A stretch of 60,319 nt of DNA, the filler included, from Hausera hauseri (taxonomy: Eukaryota): assembly GCA_046269625.1 (NCBI GenBank). It is 11 parts of 11 records of this genome, joined end to end, with 100 filler letters (N's around TTAATTAATTAA, not from the genome) between each part and the next. Parts side by side here need not be neighbours in the genome. Positions count along the whole stretch, not along the records: positions 5,017 to 9,142 come from JBJURY010745876.1; 10 more parts are not named here. One strand, given 5' to 3'. The notes beneath the pieces were generated by a model. It saw only the letters and a list, made by a program, of their open reading frames with translations. It had not been told where the DNA came from and did not search any database. The position numbers and the translations under genes are program-made. Positions 1,054 to 59,274 of this stretch are shown piece by piece. How positions within the stretch are numbered: position 1 is the first letter of the stretch; the number at the start of each line of letters is the position of its first letter.

Positions 1054-4000
1054 TCACATAAAATACCAAAGTAAAGACAGATTCACATTGATTTTTGCTG
1101 GCCATCCCAAAACCCAAAGAAGTATATTTAAGTTTTCAACAATGATATTAAAACAATAGAAACAAACCGATAAGTTTTTCAAACCACCTTCTGATAAACA
1201 ACGTCGTAAATCTCTCTTTAAATTGTCTGAAGCATTTTGCGATGATGTAATACAAAGACTAGCAATTCTCATTCTCGATTGGAAAATAATATCATCCGGA
1301 AAAAAGTTCAATCCGAATGGTGACTGATCAATACTACACCGTTGTTTATGAAAAGTGCAATACATGCCACCAATCTTTTCCAATTTGTATTTATCCGATT
1401 TACCGAAACTAATTTCCTCTAATTTTTCAATAAAAAGCGGTTTGGATTTTTCATAAGTCAAAAAGTCCAATTTGTGAGATCGCTTTTGAATTTGATGAAA
1501 CGTTTTCGGAAATTTCATGTTACTAGTTTCATCAATGTGCTTTTTAACGCCTTCAATAATCGTACTATCGATAACAGTCGTATACTTGAGACAATTAACC
1601 ACTTCATCAGCCAATGTCCAAACCAATTCGGATTTGCATTTTTGTAACAGTTGCGATTGGAAAACCGACATAATTCGTTTCGTTACGTCGGAATTGCACC
1701 GTTTTGAGCTCTCCTGAAAATCCGGATACAACGAAGGATTGTCAAGTTTTGTTTTCGGTTGCGAATTTTTCAGTTCTTCGTCGATGTATGTCAGTGGAAT
1801 CATGTCAAAATTAAAACGAAATTTTTGAAAATTAACTTCCGAGTCATTCAGTGGCAAAATATCATTCATAAAATCATGTATACACGTTGGGATATCCTTT
1901 AGAGTGAGATATTTTGTTTGATCGCCATATTTAACGGTATAATTAATGGATAGAAATAATGGTCTTTGGTCCTTTCCGATAGTTGTATTATCATAACTTG
2001 ACAGACTTTTAATATCACTATCCGACACGTTATCGGCTAATTCGTGACTATAGTCTAACGACCGTTGTCTAATCAAACCCTTAGCCGTTCCGTTGTCATC
2101 GAGTGAATAGAAACTGTTCATTTCACTCTCATCCTTTTCTTCTTCAATGCTATTCAATTGGTCTTCTTTTCCCGTTTCCGGACAGTAAAGTAAAATTTGC
2201 GGAAACGATGGTATTTCTTTGAAATATTTTGCCATTACCTGTCGAATGCGCTTAACGATTCGATTATGCATTCCGACTTTAATTTCACAACTATCTTTGT
2301 TAATGGCTACCAATGTCTGTTGTGAAACGCACGGATTGTTACGGAGAATATTGAAACAGTGACTGCAAATCGTCGTGACGAATTTCGTTGCATCGATATC
2401 ATTGTACGACAATTCACAGCAATATTCATCAAACGTATTCGCCAGATCACTGTGATCCATCGGTAAACTCTCGCGCAAATTTCGATGAACTCCACTAACG
2501 AACGTCAGTTGATAAATCGAATCCAATTTATGAATGATCTCGTTTAAAAGTTGAGTAATGCTTTCCATTTCAATGGAAAATTCACTCGTTCTTTCCGATT
2601 TATTTTGACTCCGTTCTTTCGACAATGAACTGTTGAGATTATTTTTGACCGGTAAGGTTACTTTCTTTCTATCCGGTAATTTCAGTGTCCATTTATCTTC
2701 AATTAACAATGACAAATGTTTCAACGACATTCCGTAAAGAAACAAATTCATCGGATTAATTTCCGACCGATGGTATTTAATTTCATTGATGTTATTCGGT
2801 ACCATCAGAACAACGAAACAGTCCTGTTTAATCATATAAAAACAACCCCAGGTTTTTGGCAAATCGGTAGCGATTTTCGAATGAACATTGGAGAGGAATT
2901 TATTGTAATTTCCGTTTTCCGTTTTCGTTATATCAATCAAATTGAATCCGTTCCGTTTCAAATGGACATCGAACAATTCCATAAACACCGAATTGATACC
3001 GAGGAAATTGTCGATGGCATCACTCCGATACAGATTGCAACAAATCTGGACTTCCGGCGATCGACTTAACACAGAACAAATGTTCGGTTTGGCCAAACCT
3101 TTTGCCAGTGTCATCGGGTAGATTTTGAAACATTCCAACGTTATAAACGTTTCGACGCACATCGAATCAACGTCGAATATGACGGAGGGAATTTCTTTAA
3201 TTGTCAAATCATCCCAATGGACAACTTCCGGTTCCGAGCCGACAACTTTACCGGCTTTGTTATCAATGAAAATTTCCGTGTAGATAATCCGTGACGATGT
3301 CGTACACGTGTAGTGATTGTCGGACAGAACGGTAACGTCATCCGGTACAGAAATGTTATCGCTGTCCTGTCTCGTTCGATGGTTGTCCGGATAAATCAGA
3401 TATTGAATAAAACACGGATAACAATGGTTTTCATTGTTGATCAATTTGATTTCTTTGATGAGGTTTATGAAATTTTTCGACGAGTCAGAAACCGCCAAAT
3501 GGAATCCTTCTTGCAAACGTATTTTCACCAGCGACTCGAATATGTACTTTATGTACGTTTCGTTGACAAACCACGTCGAACAGTCATAATGGCAATGGTT
3601 GTGCATAAACAACAACGACGGTGACATGGAATTCTGTCGATGTTGTTTCTTCAAACCGTAAACGGATTTAATCGGATTGTACGTCAACACCAAATTCTCC
3701 AAGTCAATACTCAACACCGTACAACAGTTGACCTGATCCCACGATCGCAACTGCGGCGGAACATGTTCCGATTTTTTCATCGACTGACTCGACATGTGCC
3801 GCGGTCGGGCTTGTTTGCCGCGTGGTGGAAATCGCTGATTCCGAATGGCTTTCACCAGTTCCGATACGAATTCGTCGCGAATCTTTTCCGGTGTTCCGAT
3901 GAACATGTTGACGTGTAACGATACTTCAAATTCGTCGACTAGCAATTGGATAACGGCAAAGTGATTCGGTGTGGCCAATTCCGTTTTGTCGGAATTCGTG

Positions 4001-4916
4001 GAGAAAAATTTCACGTACGTACTGTTTTCTTTGACGGTAAACGAACAGTAATTGCGGCAAATCAACGTGTTGAGCTGGACGAGACTTTCACGGCATTGGA
4101 TTTTATTCGTTACAGAATCAGATTGGTTGAGAAATTCCGGCAGTGGATAATCGTGTTCGAGTAGAATCATGAATTTCGTTTTGTACATACACGGTAAATA
4201 ATCCAAATCGACTGTCTGTTTCCAGTAGTCGAGAAACGATTTGAACGTTTTGTCGATCTTGTCAATTGTCTGATTGGTTTGCATCAACATCGGTGTCAGA
4301 CCGTTACTGATAATACTCGGAATGGAGCAATTGTTCTTGACGGTAAACTGCGAATACGTTTCCGTCATGTGGATATAATACCAAGTTTCTTCGATAACCG
4401 TAACGAATCCCTTGATGCTCTGATTCAATTGATTGATGAACTGATCGGAATTCTTTAGAATTTTAATTAACACCGTTTTCAAGTAATTTTGACAGAAAAA
4501 CGACCAAGTAAACGAACAGCGTTTCTGTTGTTCTAATGGTGTTTTAGACGTTATGGAAAATCGGAAAATAATGTCTTGTTTCCAGAATCGAATCAGTTCG
4601 ATTTCGATTCGGGAATCTTTGATCGCACTGACAGACGATATAAAATAGCCCATGTTTATTAACACGATTACGAGAATCGATGGGGAAATATTGATGGTTT
4701 TGTCGGAACTCAGAAAAATCTGTGAAAGACTACTGCAATCGGCATGACAACCCAAGACAATTCCGAAGATGTTTTTCTTCGTCGAAACATCTTTAATATT
4801 CGACATGAAAAATCCACCAGTTGATTTGGAAATGAAAATCAACTGTTCATCATTTCCGTTGTCGGTGATGTTTAAATATCGGTCAATCTCATTACATGAC
4901 TCCGTTTTGACATTGA
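1054..4916 (-). CDS. SZT2: SZT2 (KICSTOR subunit), large internal coding segment, partial
   Basis: 1262-aa uninterrupted ORF, also open upstream to the contig edge. Motifs YWKQ..LD..ILLEHDYPLP, IQCRES..L..SFTVKENSTYVKF, RLQEGFHLA..INLIKEI..CFIQYLIYP and ELVWTLADEVVNCL match recalled SZT2 blocks. The 3' boundary (~1050-1170) is uncertain. Confidence 0.88.
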
Positions 4917-5016
4917 NNNNNNNNNNNNNNNNNNNNNNNNNNNNNNNNNNNNNNNNNNNNTTAATTAATTAANNNNNNNNNNNNNNNNNNNNNNNNNNNN
5001 NNNNNNNNNNNNNNNN
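4917..5016. other. Artificial contig linker (first of 10)
   Basis: Identical N44-TTAATTAATTAA-N44 blocks (stops in all six frames) at 4917-5016, 9143-9242, 14868-14967, 23316-23415, 30350-30449, 34959-35058, 39152-39251, 43461-43560, 47772-47871 and 52309-52408. They define 11 independent contigs. Confidence 0.98.
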
Positions 5017-6178
5017 TCCAGTGTGGTAAGCCACTTTGCTCCTGATAATCTGTCTAGAGCTTCTTTTACTGATGGTAGTGGAAATGAGTCCTTCATCATA
5101 AGCGTGTTTATGGCTCTATAATCTATACAAAATCGATGTTTTGTGGTACCCTTTTTCTTGACCATGAGAATTGGCGAATACCAGTATCGATAGCTCGGTC
5201 GTATTATGTCAACTTTCAGCATACGTTCTATCTCTTTTGTTATTTCGGGTCTTAATGAATGGGGCGGTGGATACCATTTAAGCATCTTTTGCTCTTCTAA
5301 ATAAATTTCGTCATTGGAGCCAGGTTTCTTTTTTAGTGGAATGGTTAGTCTTAAAGTTTTTTCTCTACCTATGTGTTCTTCACTTTGGGCAATAATCGAC
5401 TTATATTTGCATAGTAATTCATAAAATTGACAATATGCTTCTGGTGAAAATTTAGTTTCAACATGAGGCGAAATTCGGCATATTTGTATGGTTTTTCTTC
5501 AGTTGTTATTGCAGATACTTTATAAGTATGACCCAATGTAGTATTGGAGTACAACTTTATGGGAGTTGGTGCATTATTTACTAATCTGATTGGTACCCTT
5601 CCTGTCGTTACTCTTGTCAGAATATTACTAAGTATGATATTTGGATTAACGTCTTTTTGTGGCTCAAAATATATTGGTTGGTCGTCCTCTTCGCGGATTT
5701 GAGCATAAGTTAGCATTTCCGTTCTGGGCGGAATACTTTCGTCGACGGGGATCCATACTTCTTCTTGCTTCCTTTCTTTCATTGTTTTAGTACCTTTCAC
5801 TGGCCCGAGTTCTAATAGTTTTCCGGTCTGTAAATTTATTGCGATATTGGGTAATTGCTTTAGTATATCACAACCTAACACTACATCATCAATTAATTGA
5901 TCCAATATGGCAAACTCGTGTCGAATGATTTGACCCATTAATTGAACTAGGGGACTCCACTTAAATTTCTGTTTGGATTCTTGCCCGAAGGCTTATACGC
6001 TACCTGGGTCTGATAATGATGCTGGCTGCAGTTGTTTTCGAAGTGTCGGCGGTATTGATTCTAATTTGATAATTGATTTCTCTGATCCGGTGTTTATTAA
6101 GGCATAGACTTCCCAGTCTTCAATGGTAACTTTTGTGAAGGGTCTTCCTTCCATATCTGACCCGTAACAACTAGACAT
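5017..6178 (-). pseudogene. pol: Gypsy pol fragment: protease, spacer and RT start
   Basis: Protease with D>N at the DTG triad and the VVLGCDIL motif, followed by RT motifs. Confidence 0.88.
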
Positions 6179-6799
6179 GTCCTTTGGTCGTTTAATTGAA
6201 GAAATCCTATGTCCGTTTATTGTTATCTCTGGTAATGAAATAATATTTTCGGTCAGCTGTTTTAGTTATTCGTTAGGGTACATGTCGTTAATTGCCATAT
6301 TGTTCGCATTTTTTCTAATTAATGGTTCTTGTACTATTGGATTTTGGAACGATTTCATTCCTAAAGTTCCCCAAAATGTTAATTTTGTCTCTATATTTCG
6401 AGCTATTCTCGGTGAGTACAGTATCCCATGGTCATCCTCCGCTCGTCGTTGATTAGTGATTTGCATTTTCTTTAGTACTCCGTATTGTTTTGTTCCTTCA
6501 TAAGGATCTTTATAGCTGGAAGGTTTTTGACAGAATGCCGATCTATATGATACCATGGATGTTTTGTCACAATCCTCGTATATCGGAGCCGTTGGCGACA
6601 TGATAGGTAAGGGTGCTCTAACTACTGAATACATTCTATGTTTATTTTGTCTAAGGATTGCTTCTCCTCCCTTAGGATCGTCATCATCAGAGATATTTCT
6701 TCGTGTCATTGCCTTCTTAGCCCTGTGTTTTAATCAAAATATGGGTCTTGCTCGTTGTTTATAATTACAGTAACCGACATGGCGTTCAACGTCATTTTT

Positions 6800-9142
6800 T
6801 CATCCATTTTCTTCATAGGCCTTAAGCATTTTGCCGAAGGGTGTGATAATTGCAGTTAAGATCTTACAGGAAAATCCTGTTAGCGTGAATATTTCGTACT
6901 CATTTATAACCGCTTGAATTACCGCCTTTACTAGTTGTACCATGAAATAGATTGCTAAAAATCCAAATGCCGCTTGTCCAAAAATTAAAAATCTTCCCCA
7001 TATTTTGTAAAGTATTTCTGTGGTTACTCGCTGGTAATGGTTCGCATCAAGTAAGGATTCCTATTTCGCCTGGTATCGAGTATCATCTACTACGGATGCC
7101 ATAGATCGACTTAATTCGTGTGTTCGCTGTCGTAAAAAAGCGAGAAATTGTCGAAAAGCTTCGATCTCTTTTGGTCTGTAAATGCCCTTTTGAGGTGTAT
7201 CCTGGAATTTATTGTCGGTAATTCCTTTTGCTAAATTAGTTTTAGCTAGTTTTTTAGGAATGGTAGTGACGCCTCCATTAGGTAGGCTAACCCAATCTAT
7301 TTCACTACGCCTAAACATCGGTTCACCCAAACTTGCCTTACAATCCTTTAGAATGGTTGGTTGTGTTGCATTATCGAGAAACACTCTAGTGAGAGGCATA
7401 GCTAAGCGCGGGGTATTCTGATAGATCACAGGAAGTTCTTATATGCATCGTTTTTCCTCGACGTTAATTTGTACGTCTCTTTTCTCGCATTTATATGTCA
7501 GTAGAATTTCACTCTTAACTTGACCAAAAATTTCTTCTCTCATGGGAATAATTGGTGAGGCTAATTCCGGGTTCGCATAAATAAGAGATAATTTTGTCCT
7601 CATAATTTCCGTATCTAATTTGCAGTAATAAGTTATCATTTTGTGGTATAGTTCGGCTATTCCAACCTGTCCCTTGTAATAGAAGTAGTCGTCTCTGTTT
7701 TTCAGATAATCCTCTATCCGGATGTCTTGTGTTTCTAGGTTGTATGTTTTAGCGTTTATCTCGGTTTCTGCGACGAAGTACGCTTCGTAATTAGTGGTGA
7801 ACATTACTACTTCACATTTTGAAATCATTTCATTTTTATAAATTTTAATCCATACTAATTAAAGATTAATATCGTAAGTGTGTGATGCTCTGATACATCT
7901 TCACGTGCTCTTGAACTGATGTCGGATTTGTCTACGTATCGTTTCCCGGTAGTTTCTTTAAATTGTAGTTCTTTGGTCTTAATAAAATTACATGCTTTTC
8001 CCGTGGGCGTTTCCCATATGACGACAGAGCTTCTGAAAACACAAGTTCCGTCTTGCATGTGACATTTTTGATTCTCAGTATATAACTTGGTTACGCTATG
8101 GAACATCACGTTTTGAACTCGCATTTCTAATTCGCAAAAGTCTACTACCACTACGTTTGCTTCCAGTCCTTTTCCGGTATCGTATTCCGTTCCACTACAG
8201 TGCCCGTTATGCATATCTTGCCTTTCGGCTACTATCTTATACGCTCTGATTATTTTTCCAGGCTGCATTTCTAATTCCATGCTATCCCATTTCAGTCTTC
8301 CAGTTTCTTGGGCTTGTTTGCAGTGTTGTCTTTCCAAATTCATTGGAATTGGAGGGGTTGTTGGCTTAATTATCGAGGAGTGCCCGTGAATTAGCCCACA
8401 GTGAAATATACTACGAGATCGTCTTAGCATACATCTCATGCCATCCAGAGATATCAATTTTTTTAGTTGATATAAAAAATATCTCTTCTCTTTTGTCTCT
8501 AATTTGTGGGGTCTGGCATCTTCGCAGGCTTCTAAATCTATTAGTGAGTATTTTTGTCCAAGTTTAAAATTATTGCAATCGTAGACGGTAACAGCGCCCA
8601 TCTGTTTTATCAACACCATTATGGTGGGTAAACTGATTAACCAATTAGATTCGTTCTTTCGGTTGTTGTTATCCGTTGTCGTCAAGTTTCGTATGATGTC
8701 GACGAGTCCATTATTGCTATTCCTCTTGTCTTCTTCCTTGTCAAGCAATTTTGGCCAGTTTACTTCGCATGGACACTTTCTAGCTACTTTCCGTGCCGAA
8801 CTTCTAGCTCGGTTTAATTTATTTTCTCGATTCGGGTTTATCTTAATTGCCAAGTACAATAATACTTTTCTCAACTCTTCTATTGTATTTTCCACCATAA
8901 TCTTCTCGATTACTGCATCGTCAGTTAGGTTCCTTTTCGACAGTTTGAAATGTAAACTTCTCATTATTCTTGCTGCATTCAATATTGCCCTCTCTTTGTC
9001 ATCTAATGTATCTCCTCGGAGACTCGAATAATTTACGATACGTATAAAATTTTTCATTAACTCTCTTAATTCTTCATTATCTGTATTAAAAGTAGGAATC
9101 GACATTTGTCTCAGTTCTCTAATTAATTCTCCATTATAGTCA
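6800..9142 (-). pseudogene. Class III fusion glycoprotein (chuvirus G / herpes gB-like) envelope
   Basis: Hydrophobic signal then VYDC..YSLIDLEAC, C..RRSRSIFHCG..HSS, LYHKMITYYC....RTKLSL..ANP, EILLTYKCEKRDVQI..C..ELPVIYQN..P.TRV, and TM region IWGRFLIFGQAAFGFLAIYFMVQLVKAVIQAVINEY. These follow the chuvirus-type glycoprotein pattern in order. One frameshift (~7850) and several stops. Confidence 0.8.
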
Positions 9143-9242
9143 NNNNNNNNNNNNNNNNNNNNNNNNNNNNNNNNNNNNNNNNNNNNTTAATTAATTAANN
9201 NNNNNNNNNNNNNNNNNNNNNNNNNNNNNNNNNNNNNNNNNN

Positions 9243-11330
9243 AATTTTGTGTAAGATAGTGGTATTAAAAATAGTGTTCGAAGAGGTAAGTTTATCTAAT
9301 GAATGTACCGAACCAACGCAATCATAGTTGTGAGAATCAAATCTCGATTGAATATTGATATTATCATTGAAAATTTTAAGGAATGAAAAGAGTTTGTTGA
9401 CGAAGTTTGAATTACTTACAGGATTTTTGAGTATAGTTGTCCGTGGAAAAATCGTTTGTGCCTTATGGGAGATACTATTTATTCGTGCAGTAGGATGTCC
9501 AGTAGTGTTACGTTTCAGACATTGTTGTTTACAGTCAGTTAAAAGATTGCAGTGCAATAAGAAATCCGAACCTAGGATTGCTGTGCGGACGTTAGCGACG
9601 GTAAATGTCCAATGAAACGTGGCGTGAAAGTTTGGCAAGGTGAACGACAATTTAGATGTACTCGAAATGTCTAGCGATTCTCCTGAAGCCGCAAATAACG
9701 ATTTAGCTTTGAATGGTGAACTTTGTACAGGGAAAGTGAGTGGTAACAAAGAAACCGTAGCGCCTGTATTGATAAGGAAATCTATGGATTGAGTGGTTGG
9801 TGTGGTTATCGAAGCCTTTAGTGTAAAAACTGCAAAAGAAGAGTGTCGGCAGGTAGTTTTAGAGAAGTTGCCTTTGCCAGAATCTGCTGTGAGTACTGGC
9901 TGAAAAATTAGTTTTTTGAAAAAGGAGAAACAGAGCGACTGTTAGAATGGAGGTTTAAGTTTTCGTCATTTGCATAATGAGATTTATTTTTTAAAGTGCA
10001 ACTAGGAATGCATCTGCGTGCGTTATGTCGGAATTTTAATGATATATGCAAATGGCGTTATCTGTATGATATCTTTGATTATAAAATTTGCACCCTAGGT
10101 GGCATTTCTGTGCATTAATATCAAACTTACTGTGGTAATAGCAGATCAGTGATCGTCCAGGTGAAGTTGAACGACCACGACATATTGAACGGATACGGTC
10201 ACGTATGAAACATTCCCTCCGACGAGTCACTGAAATCTCGTTTAGTTTGTTGTTAATATTAATTATTGTTGTTTGTAGGGCCGCATTTTCGGCTCGTAGT
10301 TGATCTAACTGCTGTTTGAATGTGGCATTATTGGTAGTAATGGCTGCAAAAATGACTGATTGGGTTTGCACATTCAAAACCTCGTAAATTTTGTCTGCCC
10401 GTTCGGCCAATTTATCAAGCGTCGTCGATTCTTCGACGACAGTAAGTAAGGCCCTATTTTGTATGAACAATGCGTTCAGAAACTAGCGTTGCAAAAGACC
10501 GGCGTTATGTTGTTTAGTCACGCCAAGTGTTTGAAGTTGAACGAGTGACGTTATGAGGAAATATGATGGTTTTTGCGTCCCCATAGCATTGTCGTTGAAG
10601 AAACGATGAATTATTGAGTCCATAGATGGTTCAGTAAGCTTTAAAACAGCGTAGTAAAGATGGGTATATAGATCAGGTTGCTGGAAGATGTCTAGCAAAT
10701 TAAGAATGGATGTTTTTACAGTTGTCGGTAAAAGACAAAGTAGGTTATGAGCTTTTGTTAGTGGATCAGTGATGTTGTTAGACTGCAGCTAAAGTTTGTA
10801 AAAGCTAAGCCAGGTTTTGTTGGATTTTTCATGATCAATAAAATACTGCATACACTAAGAAAAAGTGTTTGACTGACGGGGTGGAAAATGTATAGCCGGG
10901 GAAAGTAGATTGCATGGTGACGGTCGACGATTTTTGGTTAAAAGCAAAATGTGATGTTTTAGAAGTTTATTTGTCAGTGGTGTTAATGGTGGGCGAGGAG
11001 TCCATTCCACCACGTATGCGAGTGTGTACGTGAATGACGATACAATGTGTTGAAGGAACAGAAAGATTACAATGGTTGACATTAGTTACGGGTAGGTTGT
11101 TGTATGTAAGATAAAAGTCAGAGATGTTGGCGACGTGTAATGCATAATTGTGTAAGTAGGATGCGTCTATGAAATGTGTTATTATGTGTGTGAGTAAACG
11201 GCAATTATTGAGAAAGAATAAAAAGGAAAGTGTCGGTGTAAGCCCAAGTGGTTGGTGTGGTGACGGAACACACCATGGTGCGGGACTCAAAGGCATTGGA
11301 CGGACATGTGGGTGGTCGGTCACGCTGTGA
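9243..11330 (-). mobile_element. UBL-Gag Gypsy (CsRN1 clade) copy 1: UBL-gag-protease, decayed
   Basis: Gag motifs (MGTQKPSYFL, RALLTVVEESTTLDKLAERADKIYEV), tandem CHCC knuckles (CYYHSKF..AQKC..GC), A-AAA-AAC slip site at 9917-9911, protease FLINTGA..ILGSDFLLH. Homologous to 40740-43460 and 55897-59070. Confidence 0.9.
11006..11230 (-). other. Ubiquitin-like domain in frame with Gag (copy 1)
   Basis: LSFLFFLNN...DFYLTYNN...IHVHTRIRGG immediately followed by M. Confidence 0.7.
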
Positions 11331-11579
11331 TTTACTTAGGATTTAAGATTATTGATGCTTACGCATGGACAAAAATTGGAACTATCGGGGTAAATGTGCT
11401 GTAAACAGCAACTGCAACGATTGGCAGTATCGTTTTGCACTGTGGGCTCTGCAGATCGACTTTCTCACTTTGTGTCTTCCTACGAGAGATCTGCGTACTC
11501 AAAGACTCTCTGTATTTTGTTTTCGAAACACTCGATATATTCGTAATTGTCGTAAATGTATTAAGTCAGTGATCTTGTT

Positions 11580-12110
11580 CGAAAACAAATCTTTGAAGTA
11601 GGAATCGATGATTGTGATAGCGTTGTTGAAGATATGTTTTTTGAGCGTGTAGTTTCTTTTCAATGGGGAACAGAACTAGGCCTTGCAGAAGGGCGTATAG
11701 TAGATAACAAACTTGGTTTTGTAGTTATCATGGTACTAATGGGCGACATGGGTACCAATGATGTTGAAATGACAATGGGACTGATTGTAATAGATAATGG
11801 ATTTGTACTGAAATTAACGTCTTTAGATGATTCAGTTAGATGCGTCGTATTTGATGGACGGGAGTGTCTAGTGTTATGCACAGTAGCCCATTTCGAGTAA
11901 TTTGATGCGGTAGCAAACGAAGACAAATTACTCACATGAAGAGGAGTAGTAAAATTACCACTAGATGCCACTTTTGTAGAATAAATCGCTGTAATATTAC
12001 GTATAGTCGTTTTATTTGATTTAAATGTTATAGATTCAGATGCCTTTTTCGAAGATATCAGAATATTAAAGTTGGTCGATTTTGAAGGCTCAGTTGAAAG
12101 TATTGCATTT
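11580..12110 (-). other. Ser/Thr-rich low-complexity coding segment fused in frame to the ZW10 fragment
   Basis: ORF 11660-12346 leaves ZW10 similarity after ..LFIKSL and continues as S/T-rich sequence, which carries on past the stop. Confidence 0.5.
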
Positions 12111-13385
12111 AAGGACTTGATAAATAGAGAGAATAAAGCGTTTAACAAATTCCCGAGAAACCGATTATAAACTCGTTGAGGCAGAACATCGTAAACTTTA
12201 GACAACAACAAAATATTCAAAGTGCTCTGTTTTAATGACTGGTGGAACTTTTCACGTTTTAACGATCCGATATTAGAGAAATCGGAAATATTTTCGAAAC
12301 AAACACTTAACTCATCGATCTGTTGTTGGACTTCTTCAGACAACACTTGGATTGTCGCCTAACGGAACTTATAGACAATTGCCATTAAGTTAAGTGTAGC
12401 GGGTTTAAGGAGACATTCATCGACTGCCTCAAAATTATGATTTCGTTTAAGAATCTTACCGACGTGGACTTTTACATAGGTTGTTCCAAAAAGGCAACGA
12501 TGGGCGATATACATATAGTTATTGTAATGTAAGGCTGCAGCAAGATGTAAATCACGTAAAGCATCTTTGTTCCTCTCTAGTACAACATTTAAATACATAT
12601 CAAATATATCAAATGTGAAAATTCAATCATTTCAAGTATGATCTCTTTATCGTTTTTAACAGAAATTAACTCATAATCACCAAATTTACATTTGATATTA
12701 TCCATCAAATCAATAACTAATTTACTGACCTTGCACGTCGGAAATTGCAATTTGTAAAGATCAATATATTTGGGCAATTCATCACTGTCAGTGAGATTCT
12801 CAACGATTTCCTTTTTAGAGAAATTACCACTGAATGGATCACGATCAACTGTTTTAAATCCAGAATGGATTTGTAACAAAAATCTCGTACCGTCAACAAA
12901 AACGTGTGCTTGATCATCTTACGATTATCGGCATTAAAGTTCTATATGAATTCCTCCAGATTCTGACTGGTCTTTTGTATAAAATGATATTCCTGTAAAA
13001 ATTCGCTGAATTCTCCAATTGTCAATAACAAACTGTGATACAAATAACCGGATGAATTCAATATCAAACTATCGGTGAGTTTCGCGTCGAAATGTTTCAA
13101 AGATTAAACGTCAATTAGCGATTCACCGAATTCTGTTACGGTAAAATTCAACAGGCCACTGTGAAGAGCTTTGAGAGCAATTCTCAATAAATCCAGTAAA
13201 CAGTCCTTTATTTCCCATTTCCAATTGCTGTCATCGGGCAAATTAACAGCGGCAATCATGAATACCATACAGCGTTTTATCATTTGCATGGACAATATAT
13301 AGTCTTTAACATTTTCGATGGTCAAATTTTAGAAAATCGTTCGCGAAAAGCTCCAGCAATTGTTCAACGTGGTGATTCAATTTCA
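12110..13385 (-). pseudogene. ZW10: ZW10 (RZZ/NRZ complex) fragment, intronless, with stops and frameshifts
   Basis: LQFPTCKVSKLVIDLM, AAALHYNNYMYIAH, FR*ATIQVLSEEVQQQIDEL, DVLPQRVYNRFLGNLLN and EFSEFLQEYHFI match the central and C-terminal part of ZW10. In-frame TAG at 12361-12359. Confidence 0.85.
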
Positions 13386-13403
13386 ATTTGAACATAGCTA
13401 TAA

Positions 13404-14867
13404 CTAGCCATTCAAACGTGTCAATGGACGACAGGACTCGTAACGTGGTTCTATGTTTTGTATCAAATATACCGGGCAGTTGTCCAATGGTTGAATCTGA
13501 TAATCTCCTTTATAAGGATAGTTAGAGAGTATCTTAGTTTCCTTGGAGACTATTACTGTTCTATTATTAATTTGCAATCGGGCTTCTCCTTGATTGGTAA
13601 TTATAGCACATGATGGATCCTTTCTTTTAATTCGAATATCAGTCCTTTTAAGGTAGACCTTATCAATGCCTCCCATACAAATCGATCCTTGTTCAGCAAT
13701 GTCTGCGAACTCTATTCTGTCAGTTTTCTTGTCTACAAACAGCTTATCCCATTTCTGAACGATACTTATGTCCATGCGCTGCAATACGGCCTCTGGAATT
13801 AAAGTAGTATTACATGTTATTTCAGATGAGGAGTATCCATCGCATTTATACAAAGGTCTACTTGGAAAAATGAAATATGGAGATCCTTGACGGTTAAGTT
13901 TAATCTGGTACTCTTGTCGTAAATTATTCAATTGTTGCAATAATGTATCTACTCTTTTCCATTGATCATCCGGCAAATTAAAATTCTGATCTACACTGAA
14001 CGTGCCAAAGATATCAGTTTCCTTCAATTGTATTTTTTTAGATAACCATGGCAATTCTATTTCAACTATAAGTTTCTTACAAAGTAGTTGTCTAAGGTTT
14101 TCGTAGCATTTTTCTTTCTCCATATATACATCTTCTAATTCAATTATTAGATCTTCGATCTTCTCTATTCTTATTCGATGAATTTTCGATTCCTGTTCTT
14201 GTTCGTTAGTTTTATCTATTGCTACTAAAGTTGAAAGTAAATTTTTAATTTTTTTGGTTTCTGGCCATAACATATATGGAAGTGTTACTTTGAATGTCTG
14301 GCACTTTTTGTTCTGCCTGATCCAATTGCTTTCTAGTTATGAAGGGTTTTTCCAGGATAGAACTATTGGTTGATGGTTCAGGTGTTAATTGATGGTGTTC
14401 TGCTATAGATTTTGCCATTAACAAACCCGTAAAGGCTGATTTAGTTTGTTCATTAAAAGTTACTGAACGACGAGGCGAGGCATTTCTTTCGTCGTTATTA
14501 CTTTTTCTATTATCTGACAAATTTCCTTTTTCTTTTGTAGGACTGCTACAAGATGGTGTTGCTGAATCCAATTTTCTCTCATTGAAATTTTCGGAATATT
14601 CTGGCGTCGAATTCCTATCGTACCTGTGTGGAGAAATATTCCTATTTGTTGATGTTTCATTTCGTCTAAAATTGTAATCTGATGACCAAGCATATATATC
14701 ATTATTACCATTTGGTCCGGGGGAAGGAGTTCGGTTTCGGTCTCTTGGAGGATATGGACTAGGATTTCTATTATATCTATCCGATTCTCGTCGAGGTGGA
14801 GTGTAGTCACGTCTTCTATCGTAATTTCCTAATCTTGAATCATTATAACTAATTCTATTATCATTTC
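13404..14867 (-). other. Unknown ORFs: Arg/Ser/Pro-rich segment (gag-tail-like) followed by a 289-aa ORF
   Basis: RRRDYTPPRRES..RNPSPYPPRDRNRTPSP..RNASPRRSVTFNE then ORF 14273-13404. No recognisable domain; retroelement origin is inferred only. Confidence 0.35.
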
Positions 14868-24232: not shown

Positions 24233-27200
24233 TTACATTAATGCAGCATGTCCATGAGGAAATGTGCTGATTCCGTCTTCAAGAATGTGTCTTTTGTCAT
24301 AAAACCAATTAAGACTTTTCTTCCACAGTGCAACCGTGGCAATCTGATATTCCCGGGACTGGATCCTCTTCATCTCGCTGACTATGTGATGTTGTTCCCG
24401 CAACACTCTCTCAAAATCTGCAAAGTTTATTTCTTTAGCTAATGTGGTCCTTGGCTCGCTTCTTTCCCTGACCACTTACATCGGTGGCGTATATTTTTAT
24501 CTCAACGCCACGAAACGGGTGATGATCTTCCCATTCACCTCATCTTTAAACTTCCCGAGGACCTTCTTGTTGGCGGTTGAATAATTTGGATGATCCTTCA
24601 GATAGTCCGAGTTATCCATATACTACGCCAATTTTGCAAACTTTTCAGAAACATCATATGTGTGGATCTGGTACATGAAACTGTCCGTGTCCATGCACAT
24701 TAGCTGGAGCTCCTTGAATGTGGAGACCATGATGTTGTAATAAATGTTATACATCAAGGTCTTGGATAGATCAAATATAGACATGCCCATATGTATAGGC
24801 ATGTTGAACTCAAGTGATGTCTTGAGCATGTGTATGCTCACCAAATTCTCCGTGTAGACTGTGATACTGTGGAAGTTGGGCTTAGCGATGAGTTTCTTTG
24901 CCCTCTTCCAGTCACATAACAGCTCGATGTTTATCCGGTTGCGGATGTTCTCCATAGTTTTGCCAAAGACCGAGTTGTTATACAGCTTGAATTGGTCTTT
25001 CTCAAACTCGTTCTTGGCATTGGCCGTCAACTGGGTATTGAAGTCTATGTATGGATTCAGCCATATGGGCTGGATGAACTACAAGTTCCGATGAATGCTA
25101 ATGACTGGCAGTCCATTTTTGATGGCCTGTTGGAGATTTATGTAGTGGGCTACATACCTCGCCCTATTTTCGAGGTGGCAGAGCAGCTTCTTATGCTTGC
25201 AATTAGGCGGTCTCTTGCTCTTCGGCAGAAAAGGCAGCTACTCATGCCTTGTGTGGATACTATGTGCGTATTCCACGTCCACTTGCAGTATGTAACTCGT
25301 ATTTCCATTGGGATCCATACCTTCAATATCCAGGACTTGCGGCTGCTCCATACATTGAAAGTTATCAGAGGGCAATGGGTTGCTCATTGCTTATCCATGC
25401 AAGTTTTTGGCGTCCAGGTATAAAATATCTGAGGATTCCTTGGATGGATCACAATCTGCCATCTATTTGTTCTTGGCCTCACTGTACCTAAGAATGACCT
25501 GGCAGATTCCGCCTCTAATGCCGCTCTCAACCATGAGGACCATATTGTAATCCTTCAAGATCTGGAGCCTTATGCCAGTATAGAGCAGCATCGCCGCCAA
25601 GCTCATTCCTGGAGCTGTAAAGAAATGGGCTGGATCTAACTTGTGGTTCTAAAGAGTCACATTACGGAAGTTTTCGAAGATATCTGTAAGCAACATCACG
25701 TTTGTGAGGAGATAGATATCACTATATTCCTCTATTGTCCTGCACTGGAAGGTCTGCCATATTCTTTGGGCGTGCTCATAGTCAGCATCTCCAATATGAC
25801 TGTATGACAACTGACTGTAGAAGTCCTCCTTGGCCGGTAATTCTTCTTCATCCAGTGCTTTCCATTACGTTATATAGTCATAGGGTAACACTCCTTTCCG
25901 GTTCACCAGGTCAAATGTATCCGGAAAGAACCTCTTCGCTTCCTTGAGCTCATCAGTGGGAAGGTTCTTCATGAGGCTGTCCAGTGACGAGCTCATGAAG
26001 CGGAACCTATCAACGAAGCGAAGTCTAATGCTGCCAACATGCTTTGTGAAGGTGATATACTTCTCCTCACTATTTGAAATCACATCAATGGTCCCCTCAA
26101 TATTGCCCAATTCTCGAACAATGAAGTGGGAATCGTAGCCAATAAGATTGTGGAATACCACTGGAACATATGTAAATGTTTTGCAGCGTAAGTCGGTATA
26201 TGCCTGTAAAATGGCAGTGATACCTGACTTTGTGATTTTCCCATGTGAATGGCCTTTGCATAAGTAGCATGTTGATGCTTTGCGACATTCACATTTTCTT
26301 GCTGCGATATCACCATGTAGCCCTTATGCTGTTGCAACATGTCTTCAAGTTTGTGGGCATACTGTTCCAAATGGTGCATAAAATGACCTGCTGCATTTAT
26401 ACCCATGTATAGGTAGGGTTCATTGTTCAGTCCTTTGTCATACATGTAGTACGATGAAAACTCATGTTACTCTCATGCTGTAGTACTGTTTTGCTGCAGA
26501 TTGAGGCTACAACTGTGAACTGGGCTAAGAATGGCCTCAAAGTCACAATATATGACAATTGGCACCTTCTGAATCTTCTCGAACTCCTTGAATTCCAGGT
26601 AAACCTCCTTGGGAATTCTGCTTGGATGCAATAGTTTGTATTGCAGTAAGTCTTGTGCTCCTCCAGCTTTTCTGCTGCTGTGTCTCCATTAAAATGGATA
26701 AAGCATCTTTGGCATATTTCTCACCTTGATTTATGCTGGGATATTTGGGATGCTACGAGGCCCTCAAAATTCTTGATCCATATGAAGTGCCTTCATTCTC
26801 CATTATATAGCAGGAGTATATCCCTATGATCCTCCAATTCCTACTTACCCACATGGCGGGGATAAAATTTGTCTTCCTCCAATCCGAAGATGTTGATGAA
26901 GATGTTGTTCACGCTTTCAAATTTCACGACTTCATCCAGGCTCGGCGGGAATAAAATACAGCTGAAGTCGTACGTGTGCTGTACTTTGTCATATATCCAA
27001 ACTCGGGAAGTATTATGTTGATCCTGGACTAGTTTTGACAAAATAGAATACATGAAGCACACTCTATCCTCATTATGGACATTGATGTATGCCTTTTTCT
27101 TAACTATCCATTCAGGAAGCTGTGTGTAGGAGCTGCCTCTCATGGGAGAATACTTGTGCACATGCATAAGTAACCCCTTTATTGTTGCTAAAGTCCAACA

Positions 27201-27467
27201 GCTCTTCTTGTCTTGACTTTCTTTGCCTTTGTGGATGAGCCTTGCATAGTCCTCTTTAATGAAATCCCTAATGTTAGAGGATTTCAATTGTGGCCTGTTC
27301 TTTGCCTTGAAGGCTCTACTAGACAGCTCTCCTTTCTCATTGGTGAAGGTGGCTTCCAATTTGAAGTTCACCTTAAAAGCCTTCAGTTCCAACACGTTGT
27401 CCTGAAGAATTCCTGCTGCCTCCTCCTTTGAATATTCCAGGAATTCATGGATCAATGTCTGCCCCAC
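24233..27467 (-). pseudogene. Protein-primed family B DNA polymerase (pPolB)
   Basis: GSSYTQLPEWI..K..INVHNED..CF, KVRYHCHFTG, VFHNLIGYDSHFI, RFVDRFRFMSSSLDSL, RKGVLPYDY, GIRGGI, LYLDAKNL, FKLYNNSVFGKTMENIRNR, MDTDSF, DKRHILEDGISTFPHGH. Many frameshifts. Confidence 0.93.
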
Positions 27468-27508
27468 TGTTGCTATGAAACATTGCTGTACTTTGCTCTT
27501 CAGTGCAG

Positions 27509-28057
27509 CTACATCAACTGGCCGTTTTCTTTGACTTTTGATGGAGCATCTGCTGCTACTTCTGATATGCGTTTTAGTCCTGCATCGGACCTTGCTGCTA
27601 AAGCAGTCTGTAGAACTGGCTGTGCTGCCAAAGCAGAATGCTGCTCATTAAATATGACCTTCTTTGACTTTGATTTGAAGTCAGTCAAATGATGTTTGTG
27701 AATTTCGTAATACTGCTTGTATTTTCCATCACACACAGCCTCGCATCCTGGGCAGATATAATTGATGATCCTATTGAATTTGCGTCAATAATAGCTCTTC
27801 ATGGTATTGTAGCAATTCTCAGGGTTGTGTATTACACATGTGCAATACACGTATGAACTGCATTTTTGATTTGCCTTTGGCGCGAAAGTCGTTATTGGCA
27901 CATTTGCACTGAATATTTGTTTTTTCGACTTGGTAAAGGAAATCAAGTGCTGTTTATGGACATTGTAAAAATCTTTATAATTGGATTGGCACACTACCTC
28001 ACATGTAGGGCATATATAATACTGAACCCTATTATATAGGTGGACAAAGTACTTCAT
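27509..28057 (-). pseudogene. Two tandem Zn-finger-like modules upstream of pPolB
   Basis: YICPTCEVVC..YKDFYNVHKQHL.SF.KSKKQIF and YICPGCEAVC..YKQYYEIHKHHLTDFKSKSKKVIF. Confidence 0.55.
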
Positions 28058-30349: not shown

Positions 30350-30929
30350 NNNNNNNNNNNNNNNNNNNNNNNNNNNNNNNNNNNNNNNNNNNNTTAATTA
30401 ATTAANNNNNNNNNNNNNNNNNNNNNNNNNNNNNNNNNNNNNNNNNNNNATCTTCATTACCTTCAATAACATTTAACCTTAACACAAAACTTCTACCATC
30501 TTTACTCTTTGCACTGTTAATTTCTCTTGCGTCCTTCACATGCATCCGTCATGGACATCTTCTTTAGATGTACATAACAATCTGCGGGTTTCTTTTAACC
30601 GCTTTAATTCCCCACAGTAACCTCATTCGCACTTCTTTTCACGCTTCTCATTCGCGGGTTTGGGTTAGGTGTTAAGTCTCCCAGTCCCATCTTTAGTGCA
30701 AAGTGCTAACTTTTGAAAAACATTTCTTGGGTCTTTCGGCTTACCCTTATTATACGCCCCCTCACCCAATAAAAAGTATTTATCATTCGTCTCCTCGAAT
30801 GAGAAATATGTTTTCTCCTACTCAGGAAAAAGTAAACCATCTTTTCCTTATATTATTGTCTTTATCTGTTAACCCTTTCTGGATCCTACGCGGAGAATGG
30901 CATGTATTCTTTTCCCTCTATAATAACTG

Positions 30930-32870
30930 TTAAACTTTTTGAACAGTCAGATTTGGATAAATTGACCCAATATCTTTTGCTGGTAGCTCTCCCTTTTCTG
31001 CTTGTTCATATTTCTTTGCTTCCTTATGTTTGGTATGAAGGTCCTTTATTCGCTTCCACCATTTGAATTTCGTATTAAGACCTATGATGATTCCACACGT
31101 TGTAATTGCTGCTACAATAAACATGATACCCATGGCCTTCTTGTTATTTCTGTCATCCACTTCTTCGATTGCTTGGAATTTTTCCAATTCATTTAGCATC
31201 TCGTTATAGTTTATCTTTTCTATTGCCTTTAGATGAGTAGGAGGTTTCCCAAATGTAAACTTCATGTTCTTTACCACTGTTTCCGCTTCTAGGTTCTTCC
31301 ACAGTTGTCCATTAATATCGATGTTGAAAATATCAATCTTCGATGTCTCGACATTCACTCGCGAGTCAAAGGTCTGTGGTTCTGTAATGACCATTTCTTT
31401 CGAATATAGGGAGCATCCTGTTTCTAGGTGAAGTACTTCTAGTTTCTTTGTTAGGTGTACTGCTTCTGTCTCAAGTTTTCCTTCACATTCGCATAACTTC
31501 TGTGCTTTCAATTCTGTTTTAGTGACTATCGCCCATGTGCCTCTGCCAATCTTTGTTGCTTGTGGTATCTGCGTTCTCCTGAGTAATTCTTTCCGACACA
31601 GTTTCTCAGCTCTTTCTCTGTTGCCTTCGTACATGTTTAATATACACGATTCTGCTTGTTTCGTGGTGTACGTTGGTTGTGCAATTTCACAATATTCAGT
31701 GATTTCCTTGCGGCAGTTGTTGAATTCTTCCTGTTGTAGAATCGCATACATGGTGCCTGCTTTATTAATTAGTAGTGCTTTCCCTTCTGGAACATTTCTA
31801 ACATAGTAATTAGTCCACCACTCGTTCTGCTTCTCTTTTCCTTCGTCCTTTACTCTTCCAATACTGGTGACTTCGTATAATTCGTATTCTTCGTTGGTGT
31901 CAACTAATGGTATGTTCATCGTCATGATAATCTGACCTCTATTCACATAGGTTTCTGTTTCTAACTGCTCATAATAGTCAATCAGATGTTCGTCTATGTT
32001 AATCGGCATTCTAAGATTTGGTGGGATGTTTCTTTGAATACATTCTAAAATGGTTTTTAGTTCTATCGGGCTCATTACGTTGATGTTTAATCTCTTAAGA
32101 GTTGTGAGGCTTATGATGTCTTCGATGTTGTTTGCAATCCTTTCTGTTCTTCTTACTAACTCCTTACTTCTGTCTTCGACGGACATCAGCATCCCCAGCG
32201 TGTTTATCATAACTTCGAGTGTTTTAGTTATGTTTATTTACCTCCATTTCTTGCATATAATTTTCGATTCTAGTTATGTGGTTTGCGTGTTCGTTGATCT
32301 TTCTTCTGTTTTCGCCGATTTGTCTGTTCGATATGTTGATCGCCGATATACTATGCTCTACCACATGTTTCATAATTTCAACGTTACCGTTGATTATGTG
32401 GACGCTTTGCTTTATGTTTCATACTTCATCTTCTTTTGCTGTTCCAAATAGGGTGTCTAGGATATCCCATATAAATGGTAATATTGCTGGCTTCTCTTTT
32501 CTCCTACTGATTCAATTTAATCTCTCTTTTATACTTCGTATTTCGTCTTGCCACTGTCTTACTTCTATCTCTAACTCTAGCATCATACTCTGGAAATGTG
32601 TAGCATTTGTCGTCTTTTGATTTCTGTTGCTCGCGTATACCCTTGTGTGTAGCAGTCTTCTAGCTCTTCCTAATTTTTCTTCTACATCTATTATTTGTCT
32701 TTGGAAATTCGTCAGTGATTGCGTGATCACTAGTTTCCAGTGGGCTTTCACTTGGTGGATTTCTTTAACTTTTACAAATACTGTACCTTCATTGTGGAAA
32801 TTTCTTCCCTAGCCGGCGTCGAAATGACGAATATCCAGCTCGTAATGACTACTATCGACCGATAAGTGTT
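30930..32870 (-). pseudogene. env: Class I fusion (baculovirus F / errantivirus Env-like) envelope
   Basis: VFVKVKEI..AHWKLVI, decayed furin site RRKEK(P) followed by fusion peptide AILPFIWDILDTLFGTA, heptads, MSPIELKTIL..IQRNIP, IPLV..YELYEV, Cys-rich region, C-terminal TM and YPNL tail. Confidence 0.82.
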
Positions 32871-32998
32871 GATCGTTATCAGTATATAGTTCTCGTTACT
32901 ACTATGCTAACTTCCACATTGTTTGCAGTAACAATTTCATGATACTCTCATCCTTCGCTTCTGCTTTGTCTACTGCTGCCACTTTCTCGGGTTGACTG

Positions 32999-33628
32999 TT
33001 ACCCTGTGTGGTTTTTTGGTTCCTCAACTTCCGTCATTACTCTTGGCCTACTTTTGCCATGTGCTCCGGCTTCAGCGACCTTCTTTTCTTTTAATTTCTC
33101 TGTTTGATTTGCCCGGTTTTTCTCTTTTAACTGTCTTCTTAGCTCATTTATTATTGCGATTTGTTTCATATTTTCTACTTCCAAACTTTTGGTCTGTAGT
33201 TCTAATTCTCGTAACTCTTTTTCCTTTCTTTTCATGTTTGATTGCATGGCTTCACTTATCGGAATTCTTGACTTTTTCTCATCAACCGCTGCTATTCTCC
33301 TCGCATATTTTCTTCTAAGTGCTGCCTGCCTTGTGACTTTTGGTCTGGGTTCATCTTCTGTGGATGTATCTGAATCTCGGATTCTCTTTAATCTTCTGAC
33401 CATTTGTTCCATTTCTGACGTTTCTGTCTCTGTATCTTCCACTAAGGTATATGAACTACTATCTTCAGTTTCATTATCATCCTTCTTTTCGCCTTGCGTT
33501 TCTTCATCGTCTCCTTCGTCTTCTTGAGCTTCTCTCCTTTCTAGATCTTCTAGTCTTCTTTTTCTTTTTAACATTGGCAGACCGCTGTCTTCTGACGAAC
33601 TGCTTTGCATTGTTCTTCTCCTTTTCAA
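32999..33628 (-). CDS. Charged low-complexity ORF between integrase and env
   Basis: 209-aa acidic/basic coiled-coil ORF. Probably the extended pol C-terminus. Confidence 0.45.
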   Translation of the reverse strand: MKRRRTMQSSSSEDSGLPMLKRKRRLEDLERREAQEDEGDDEETQGEKKDDNETEDSSSYTLVEDTETETSEMEQMVRRLKRIRDSDTSTEDEPRPKVTRQAALRRKYARRIAAVDEKKSRIPISEAMQSNMKRKEKELRELELQTKSLEVENMKQIAIINELRRQLKEKNRANQTEKLKEKKVAEAGAHGKSRPRVMTEVEEPKNHTG

Positions 33629-33804
33629 CTGCTGTGCTCTCGCTTCTTCAAATCTTCTCGCTGCTGCTCTTGTGTTTGGTATGGGGCAGTCGAATCAGTT
33701 TCTTTTTCTGTTCTCGGTTCCTTTCTCGTTGGGTAGGGTACGACTATCTCATACCTTGTGTCACTTTTATCTTCTTCCGACATTTCATCGCTACTTTGGC
33801 TCTC

Positions 33805-34830
33805 TTAAGTTGAAGTTTCAGACCTACTTTCTTCTTTTGTCGGTACTACGTATCTCGACTTGCGAATGTTGCCTCTGTTTTCTAGTTTGGGTTCTTCTGG
33901 GAATTTTCGGTCATCCTTTCTCAATTGACTTGTAGTGGTCGTTACTTCTTGTCCTGTCTGTTGGTTGATCACTACATATGTTATTGGTCCTCTTTCTTCT
34001 ATTATTTTATATCCAGGAAGCCAATTGCTTTCCAGCTTCGAACTTTTCTTATTCTTTCGGTAGTAGACTTTGTCTCCGACTTCGAATTCTTGTTGCACTG
34101 TTTTTGGATCGCTATACTTTTTCCGTTTCTGAAATGCTTCTCTTAGATATTCTTACATTGACTGTGATTTCGGGTTGTTTTTGTAGTAGGTATTGGTGGA
34201 ATTCTTCCCCTTGGTATTTGAGCCTTGGTTTTAATAAGTTATCTGTAGGAAGGATTGGCTCTCTACCGAACCGCATTTCGTACGGTGAATATTTTCTGCT
34301 GCCGTTTTCCATTACTCTCACCACCATTGCTGCTTGACTTAAATACAAATCCCATTCTTTTGGTTGATCTTGTGTGTACTTGGCTAGTACGTCGTATAAG
34401 GTGGAATGTTGTCTTTCATTTATTCCATTGGCTCCGGGGTTATAGACAGATGTTCTCACATGTTTGATGTTCATTTCTTTCAATGTATCTTTCATTGCGT
34501 TATTCACAAACTCGCGATCATTGTCGGTGACAATTATTCTCGGGCATCCGTGTCGTGGTATGAATTTTTCCAACAGGATGTCTCTGGTTTTCTGCTGTCT
34601 TATCTGATACAGTGTATAGTTCTGGCCATACACTATATATATTTACGATATGTAGAATATGTTTGTTTCGCAACGCTGTCAACGGGTGTGCTCCAGAAAG
34701 ATCTAAGCTAACTTTTTCCATTGGGAACCTCGCGTAGTCTGGTTCTTGGATCGGGTGTTTCAATATTTCCATGTTCCATAATTTGCAGATCTCACAGTTC
34801 TGGACATAATTTCCAATCTCTTGTAATCGA
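33805..34830 (-). pseudogene. pol: Gypsy integrase, frameshifted
   Basis: DDE core and C-terminal GDKVY..KL...W..GY.I motif. Confidence 0.9.
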
Positions 34831-34837
34831 TGCGCAT

Positions 34838-34958
34838 GGGCATTCACAGCCCGCTCAAGTCGAAGAACAGTCAAAGAGGCCAGCGGCGCCTTCGCCGTGA
34901 CTACCAGCAGCCTAACTATGGAGGTGATGGCAGTGACGAAAGCCCTCCAGTGGCTTGA
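34838..34958 (+). mobile_element. Non-LTR retrotransposon RNase H fragment
   Basis: FTARSSRRTVKEASGAFAVTTSSLTMEVMAVTKALQWL, with an abrupt GC rise at the junction with the integrase. Confidence 0.6.
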
Positions 34959-38861: not shown

Positions 38862-39459
38862 GTAAGTGTCAGTTTTTTATTTGAGTCATACGTAAAATTC
38901 CCTGATTGGCTATTATTGACAATATTATACACTCATTAAAGTTGCCTTTCTTATTAACATTAAATTATATGTTTATAGAAAATAACCACTGTCCCTCCCA
39001 ACGAACATGTTTTGCCTTTTATTTTATTCTCTTTTGAATTAGTATAATTGTAAAAATTAATGTCATAAACTAAAATAATGTCATAATTTATCCAACATTC
39101 GAATATTTCGATCATATTAAGATATTCGCCGGAGAGTTGACATTTAAACATNNNNNNNNNNNNNNNNNNNNNNNNNNNNNNNNNNNNNNNNNNNNTTAAT
39201 TAATTAANNNNNNNNNNNNNNNNNNNNNNNNNNNNNNNNNNNNNNNNNNNNAAAGAAATTGAATTTGCAGCAATTAAAATTGTCACCAGCGACTGCGGCA
39301 GCAGCTGCGTCGGTAACGCAGAAAAATCACAAAGGGAAAAAGTACTTAACGTTCCATTCCAAAATTCTAACCGATCAGTCATTGTGTCATTCGTCGGTTA
39401 TTTCCGATAATCAATTTAAAAAGCTCTCTTTCAATTCCAAATGTGTCTTAAGGCGGAAC

Positions 39460-59070: not shown

Positions 59071-59071
59071 T

Positions 59072-59274
59072 GTGGTGCCCACATTCATCCTATAGGACTC
59101 AAAATTATATAGTCATTTTTGTTTTGTTTAAATATTTCTATTGACTTTTTATTTTAAATAATTTTTAGTGAAATATAATACAATTGGTGGTTTTACTATA
59201 TTGCTGGACATTCTTTTTGTTGTTATGTATCTTAGCGCCTGCATACAATTAATAAATTCATAACCATTGCTACA
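59072..59274 (+). repeat. Possible short LTR
   Basis: TGTGG...CTACA ends and AATAAA at 59251. It begins exactly where RNase H is cut. No TSD seen. Confidence 0.3.

Follow-up and report, generated by a model that had tools for sequence, protein, structure and literature searches.

A decayed Ty3/Gypsy fragment from a probable flatworm, with a chuvirus/gB-like envelope in frame ahead of the protease

Can the envelope gene (env) of a long terminal repeat (LTR) retroelement stand ahead of its enzymes and be read with them as a single polyprotein? The question is raised by positions 5017–9142 of a window of 60,319 nucleotides from Hausera hauseri – 11 unlinked contigs joined via N-TTAATTAATTAA-N spacers, with no genomic context across the spacers. 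An earlier note on this DNA had described a gB/chuvirus-like env upstream of, and in frame with, a Gypsy protease (PR), and had proposed from it a single (gag)-env-pol polyprotein. The contig, 4,126 nt long and bounded by spacers at 4917–5016 and 9143–9242, is an internal fragment of a decayed, env-bearing Ty3/Gypsy LTR retroelement truncated at both ends; all its features lie on the minus strand, in the order helical region, signal, env, anchor, linker, PR, spacer and reverse transcriptase (RT), and strand asymmetry is uniform across 5001–9000 (AT skew −0.22 to −0.27). We consider it highly probable that this piece comes from an element, probably belonging to a free-living flatworm, that in its active ancestral form made Gag, a gB-type Env and Pol as one polyprotein.

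The frame that joins env to the protease runs from 7858 to 5372 and comprises 829 codons with six internal stops (7441, 7063, 6802, 6736, 6268 and 5995) before its terminal stop at 5371. The stop counts of the remaining two frames over the same interval are 74 and 68, and shuffling gives an expectation of 55.5 ± 7.1, with a minimum of 31 (Markov, 2,000 shuffles × 3 frames = 6,000). Each third of the frame is more open than chance, and the 225-codon linker between env and PR, taken by itself, has three stops where 15.4 are expected (P 0.0002, Markov shuffles) as well as a codon-position composition resembling that of the flanking coding parts. The contention that the C-terminal half of env, the transmembrane (TM) region, linker, protease and spacer share one frame broken by isolated stops thus holds.

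The ectodomain is spread over two frames. Its N-terminal half (7858–8592), carried by the frame 9141–7858, matches PF24664 at E 1.3e-16 and contains nine of 14 conserved cysteines, and its C-terminal half (6992–7858, with the stops at 7441 and 7063) matches the same family – Monjiviricetes_fusion in Pfam, spanning residues 9–347 of frame 7858–5372 – at E 6e-39 and contains five. All 14 cysteines, conserved here meaning common to at least 12 of 14 relatives, are therefore kept, and with PF24664 on both halves the identification as a chuvirus/gB-type class III fusogen is well founded. Between the halves lies a frame break at approximately 7825–7870, where similarity to the N-terminal half stops (7936–7858) and that to the C-terminal half begins in a different frame (7849–7819); on intact relatives the two adjoin (e.g. 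P0005, 643/646). The C-terminal half is 29–32% identical to its best relatives. A model of the N-terminal part has a mean predicted local distance difference test score (pLDDT) of 61, mostly 68–91 across residues 231–380, and in a Foldseek search with it class III fusogens make up all listed rows through rank 46, the best of them at E 1e-3 to 0.1: thogotovirus GP, baculovirus GP64, herpesvirus gB and VSV G. A PDB sequence search with the N-terminal part gave 0 matches, and a word-index search of the N-terminal half against longer proteins gave nothing at E 0.001 among 1,461 candidates.

Beyond the linker, the enzymes follow in the order expected of a Gypsy-type pol. The retroviral-type aspartic protease (5852–6151; residues 570–669 of the shared frame) matches Pfam RVP at E 4.5e-6, with 27.3 bits against a cut-off of 20.7; it contains the stop at 5995, and its active-site motif is degenerate (NTGS at 6094). 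The spacer between PR and RT (5504–5770), possibly of a dUTPase-like fold, aligns with the equivalent spacer of five relatives, and PR and spacer together are 28% identical to P0004 (E 3e-18). A profile of the spacer has only two PDB matches, both dUTPases and both weak (E 0.27 and 0.72), and two of its six members give dUTPase-type matches in Pfam (E 0.006 and 0.046), the window copy giving none. At about 5500–5420 the PR–spacer frame hands over to the third frame, in which RT starts (5019–5456) and is truncated by the contig end; its best PDB match is the Ty3 RT 4ol8, at E 6.7e-10. Over 89 residues this piece is 42–45% identical to five env-fused relatives and 36% to a sixth; for a further Gypsy RT of the window, the single one compared, the figure is 33%. 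None of the RT-matched relatives carries BEL-type Pfam domains: they have RVT_1, RT_RNaseH and mostly also Integrase_H2C2 and rve, in that order. The succession of PR and RT, together with the Gypsy-like relatives, marks the pol as apparently Gypsy-type and not BEL/Pao or copia, as far as 89 residues can tell. Because the N-terminal half of env and the start of RT lie in frames differing from that of the C-terminal half and PR, the copy is decayed; its two frame breaks and six stops, together with the degeneracy of the protease motif, mark it as dead.

What this dead copy would have encoded can be judged from its intact relatives. A phmmer search with frame 7858–5372, its stops replaced by X, against 1.84 billion representative proteins returned 374 matches, and in nine of the best ten of these a protease follows env in one chain. 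Pfam scanning, which covered 24 of 150 listed matches and then 4 and 7 further proteins, found env followed by PR, RT, RNase H and integrase in a single chain in P0004, P0005, P0019, P0021 and P0156, and a chain complete from Gag knuckle through env and PR to integrase in P0005, P0019 and P0156; a CCHC knuckle precedes env in eight of 11 long relatives checked. By tblastn, the N- and C-terminal env halves, PR–spacer and RT of single intact proteins map collinearly onto the contig. These fusions bear out the idea of a single (gag)-env-pol polyprotein, with the gag part supplied by the relatives; the window element itself presumably had a gag as well.

In the earlier note, intact copies whose env belonged to a separate upstream element or came after integrase were to count against the reading; neither was borne out. 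In a tree of the C-terminal env half (83 rows, FastTree supports, midpoint root; 20 of 153 matches dropped as short and the 110 stand-alone rows cut to roughly half), the window env sits among the protease-fused envs and apart from stand-alone and post-integrase ones: its clade (support 0.96) takes in every one of the 15 protease-fused rows as well as five early-ending rows, with P0005 as its sister (support 0.90).

The topology of such a chain was approached through hydropathy. A predicted internal signal sequence (8593–8643) has a hydrophobic core, with a small residue just ahead of the YDC start of the ectodomain. The core comprises 12 residues of mean Kyte–Doolittle (KD) value 2.25, and one is likewise found before the ectodomain in 14 of 14 relatives (KD 1.9–3.5), at 117 to 1,333 residues into the chain across the 15 sequences; a Met lies at most 15 residues ahead of it in only three of the 15. 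After the ectodomain comes the membrane anchor (6827–6991), with one predicted TM helix (about 6991–6929) followed by two amphipathic basic segments. Averaged over 17 rows, post-ectodomain segment A has a KD of 1.95 and 0.24 charged residues, and segments B and C have KD values of 0.48 and 0.76, about two charged residues and a high helical moment; a cysteine is present in the amphipathic segments after the TM helix in 14 of 17 sequences. The signal and TM prediction that had been called for thus yields a signal-like segment in all 15 sequences and, past the ectodomain, a single strongly hydrophobic segment, and hence a predicted topology of an internal signal and a single transmembrane span.

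The linker (6149–6823), 225 residues with stops at 6802, 6736 and 6268, is the predicted cytosolic tail of env. Scanned in frame within P0001, the protein of frame 7858–5372, it has no Pfam match; it does contain PTAP (6595–6584) and a hydrophobic-Y-P motif (6283–6272), the latter in frame and 64 residues ahead of the protease site, a placement shared with 11 of 16 relatives. Hydrophobic-Y-P is found in 12 of 17 env–PR linkers, against 1.4 expected, and in 51 of 101 tails of stand-alone chuvirus-like envs (median length 60 residues), against 4.2 expected. Since linkers and stand-alone tails share it, the linker reads as an env tail that extends to PR. The longer form, hydrophobic-Y-P-x-hydrophobic, we take to resemble a YPxL late domain; it is also present at the end of an F-type env elsewhere in the window (30930–30960).

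Several observations weigh against the single-polyprotein reading or limit its reach. The contig ends exclude gag, the LTRs, most of RT, RNase H and integrase. The relatives are only about 30% identical and are predicted proteins, in which splicing by the gene caller is possible; six of them come from ENA contigs of 9–32 kb. In one relative, P0025, RT/RNase H comes first and a partial env follows, and in two distant matches – P0043, with BEL-type DUF5641 and then env (E 2e-14), and P0148, with integrase and then env (E 2e-8), against 2e-70 for the best match – env comes after integrase-side domains. The fold comparison came out only in part as proposed: the Foldseek rows listed are of the anticipated class, but none reached E 0.001 or better, and their TM-scores are low because half of the ectodomain is absent from the model. 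Hydropathy is the sole basis of the predicted topology, and the host-marker gene described below lies, unlinked, on a contig other than 5017–9142. To these are added three points – the share of stops in the linker, the position of one of them and two relatives without a protease – that are taken up below with the explanation they favour. An artefact of another kind, TGA read-through in the gene calls of the relatives, was considered and is countered by their Trp content of 0.3–1.45%, which shows no excess.

Among the alternatives, the one that survives best retains the single open reading frame (ORF) and has Env and Pol arise from different RNAs or chains: splicing or skipped translocation would yield a cytosolic Gag–Pol that lacks a membrane-inserted Env, and Env would be supplied by a different fraction. 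We regard this as unlikely, if still to be taken seriously. Signal peptidase cleavage would otherwise separate Gag from Pol, Ty3/gypsy Pol normally enters the particle as a Gag–Pol fusion and env of Drosophila gypsy is made from a spliced RNA, all of which speak in its favour; set against them, env would have no ready start of its own, because 12 of 15 sequences lack a nearby Met before the signal. This explanation bears on how the element is expressed and does not conflict with the layout described.

A good deal less probable is an element of the same kind and order in which a natural stop, with 6268 the most plausible candidate, terminated env, and Pol was made by read-through or from its own transcript – in which case its amount would lie below that of Env and Gag. 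Three of the six stops do fall inside the linker, against an expected share of 0.17 (P 0.06). That at 6268 immediately follows the tail motif, shortly past which stand-alone envs terminate; two relatives, P0010 and P0018, also stop after env without a protease. The ends of P0010 and P0018, however, lie at or just past the anchor, ahead of any tail motif, and 15 tree relatives read from env into the protease without a stop. The stops in the linker are explained by decay, because env and the protease themselves carry stops and frame breaks. That env derives from a separate upstream element or a chuvirus-derived insertion, brought into frame by nested insertion or mis-assembly, is scarcely credible and largely refuted: frame agreement would arise by chance in 1 of 3 cases and the window has several fragmented adjoining elements (e.g. 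contig 9243–14867), yet the linker is open and coding-like, the matches to env, PR, spacer and RT run in sequence along the same intact proteins, the env has the tree position described and no repeat of at least 40 nt other than the spacers is among those listed within contig 5017–9142.

How new, then, is the layout of gag, env and pol in one chain? The earlier note had presented the position of env as unusual; env does lie ahead of a Gypsy PR, but the surprise was overstated, as this layout was published in 2019 for the planarian element Burro/GYPSM1, in which env is in frame between gag and pol (PMC6431247). Burro exceeds 25 kb, with an ORF1 of about 4,900–5,100 aa that includes MATH, BIR, SMC and ankyrin domains; its env matches mononegavirus fusion proteins, a BCL2 motif directly precedes that env, a dUTPase-like region lies between PR and RT, and Dugesia japonica is reported to harbour decayed copies that carry stops and frameshifts (PMC6431247). 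In the portions consulted of another paper (PMC11410931), Burro is mentioned once, without its env. The window element resembles Burro/GYPSM1 in having env in frame with PR (one frame, six scattered stops), a decayed copy and, probably, a flatworm host, and four relatives of its env have a Bcl-2-like domain before env; P0155 also has ankyrin repeats. Its nearest relative, P0005, has 2,627 residues, about half of the 4,873 of Burro's ORF1. The element works like Burro, a likeness set by the published description of Burro and not by its sequence.

A further comparison is offered by the GAG-ENV-POL errantiviruses of the HSV/gB type described by Chary and Hayashi 2026 in Nematoda, Bryozoa and Platyhelminthes, among them nine flatworm elements from Macrostomum, Prostheceraeus and Schmidtea, all outside Neodermata; chuvirus-like/gB env beside a Ty3/gypsy pol is widespread (PMC13524379). 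As far as sequence allows, the window element appears to share their testable features – a Ty3/Gypsy pol, a gB-type env with signal and TM segment, env upstream of pol and a probable flatworm host – and differs from those intact, mostly multi-copy elements in being a decayed fragment. Whether env and pol form a single ORF is not discussed in the searched text of that paper; it also cites nematode NERVs (Sacco et al. 2022, J Gen Virol 103:1739), in which the env/pol order is flipped (PMC13524379). Unlike NERVs, the window element goes with a host marker of flatworm, not nematode, type. NERVs are said to have one continuous gag-env-pro-pol ORF with an RNA-virus-like glycoprotein. Lastly, BEL/Pao elements with chuvirus glycoproteins (Dezordi et al. 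2020, as cited) and endogenous glycoproteins have PF24664 and the tail motif in common with the window env; unlike in those BEL/Pao elements, the pol here appears Gypsy-type and lies downstream of env, in place of an env after integrase. The env-before-PR layout is therefore already in print, and what the window adds to it is one more decayed member, probably from a flatworm, that shares about 30% identity with its closest relatives.

Ahead of the signal, the polyprotein continues upstream (8644–9141) and stays open to the contig end, with about 105–120 helical residues and a polar linker. It has no match in a Pfam scan and is modelled as helical at a pLDDT of about 45–70 (mean of 48 in a single-sequence model). 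In four relatives and in Burro its position is occupied by a Bcl-2-like domain, right before the env signal in the relatives (P0007 1–129, P0010 1–84, P0155 about 1100–1245 and P0018 about 1195–1330), whose joint profile matches Bcl-xL at E 7e-5. For the window stretch such a domain is not supported: its profile gives E 0.025 among 15 sequences and hhalign a probability of 0.5%, and a structure search returned 50 rows of generic helical bundles, with Z up to 10.9, and no Bcl-2 protein. Atlas matches, all under 0.85, are to DUF1759 and gag-like clusters and serve as a lead only.

Two further features of the relatives deserve mention. Seven of them (P0004, P0007, P0008, P0012, P0013, P0154 and P0155) have 2–5 protease-like DTG motifs or domains per chain, and several of these chains end without RT. 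Furthermore, all four relatives that extend beyond the GPY motif of integrase have a second signal-like segment, a stretch bearing cysteines and sequons and a further hydrophobic segment (P0004 2486–2736, P0005 2253–2561, P0156 2435–2594 and P0021 2780–3195); these post-integrase stretches have no significant mutual similarity and no Pfam match.

The host was assessed from a cohesin SA/STAG gene at 36462–38939 on the plus strand, a single open frame of 825 codons. The best named matches of its protein are from trematodes, and in a tree it falls within Platyhelminthes (bootstrap 100) and outside Neodermata (95), so that the host is likely a free-living, non-neodermatan flatworm.

Other contigs of the window add to the picture of its retroelements. 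On contig 9243–14867, the interval 13458–14865 (minus strand) is 54–57% identical to residues 169–637 of P0018, a chain in which a Bcl-2-like domain and an env of the family described here come later; this is likely a second element of the env-first group in the host, with its env beyond the contig. The usual pol–env order is seen at 30930–34830 (minus strand; contig 30450–34958), where integrase pieces and a charged ORF are followed by a Baculo_F-type env (E 1.3e-8). The env of flatworm errantiviruses is stated to be exclusively of the gB type (PMC13524379), and this contig, if from the same host, would be a decayed exception. An interrupted C-terminal piece of the host gene ZW10 (11660–12622, minus strand; ZW10_C at E 7e-7, ZW10_C2 weak in Pfam) lies between two retroelement fragments. 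Copies of another Gypsy family, 82–91% alike and with no env seen there, occupy 41500–43460 and 56450–59100 on the plus strand, and a piece related to that family lies at 9243–11300 on the minus strand. At 1054–4916 the minus strand has a frame that stays open for about 1,290 codons; in Pfam, nothing above threshold matches it. From their translations, pieces at about 24600–27650 resemble, and may belong to, a DNA polymerase B of the Polinton type, and one at 44719–45180 looks mariner-like.

How might a polyprotein with a membrane glycoprotein in its middle work? Gag and the accessory domains would be synthesised in the cytosol; the internal signal sequence would then direct the env ectodomain into the lumen of the endoplasmic reticulum (ER), signal peptidase cleaving ahead of it, and the single TM helix would halt transfer. 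With one span, the chain would re-emerge on the cytosolic side, where PR, RT and integrase have to be. The env tail would then lead into PR, spacer, RT, RNase H and integrase, and the element's own protease would cut behind the tail and separate these parts. Two membrane crossings of this kind resemble the structural polyproteins of flaviviruses or alphaviruses, and it is from hydropathy and such known viral polyproteins that these steps of topology and processing are proposed.

If signal peptidase severs Gag first, before Pol is translated, then Pol cannot enter the particle as a Gag–Pol fusion. We tentatively suggest – as a possibility that is on the whole doubtful – that Pol would be packaged through the cytosolic tail of Env, the sole covalent link left to it: Env trimers would bring PR–RT–integrase to the budding site and cluster the protease for activation, and the YP and PTAP motifs of the tail would recruit the ESCRT machinery. 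Env would then be obligatory for replication. The signal–ectodomain–anchor cassette after integrase, present in four of four relatives reaching that far, could be a partner glycoprotein. In the portions consulted of the literature on Burro, on gB-type errantiviruses and on signal peptidase with retrotransposon polyproteins, no description of Pol packaging via the Env tail was found.

Taken together, the window copy and its relatives show that the env–PR fusion and the tail motif, like the predicted internal signal and single anchor, are shared throughout a whole env clade. The finding sharpens the question of how Pol is packaged, and how Gag, Env and Pol are kept in balance, when one chain crosses the ER membrane twice. 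Because intact multi-copy families, of up to 215 copies, are present in planarians (PMC13524379), it is there that the question can be addressed.

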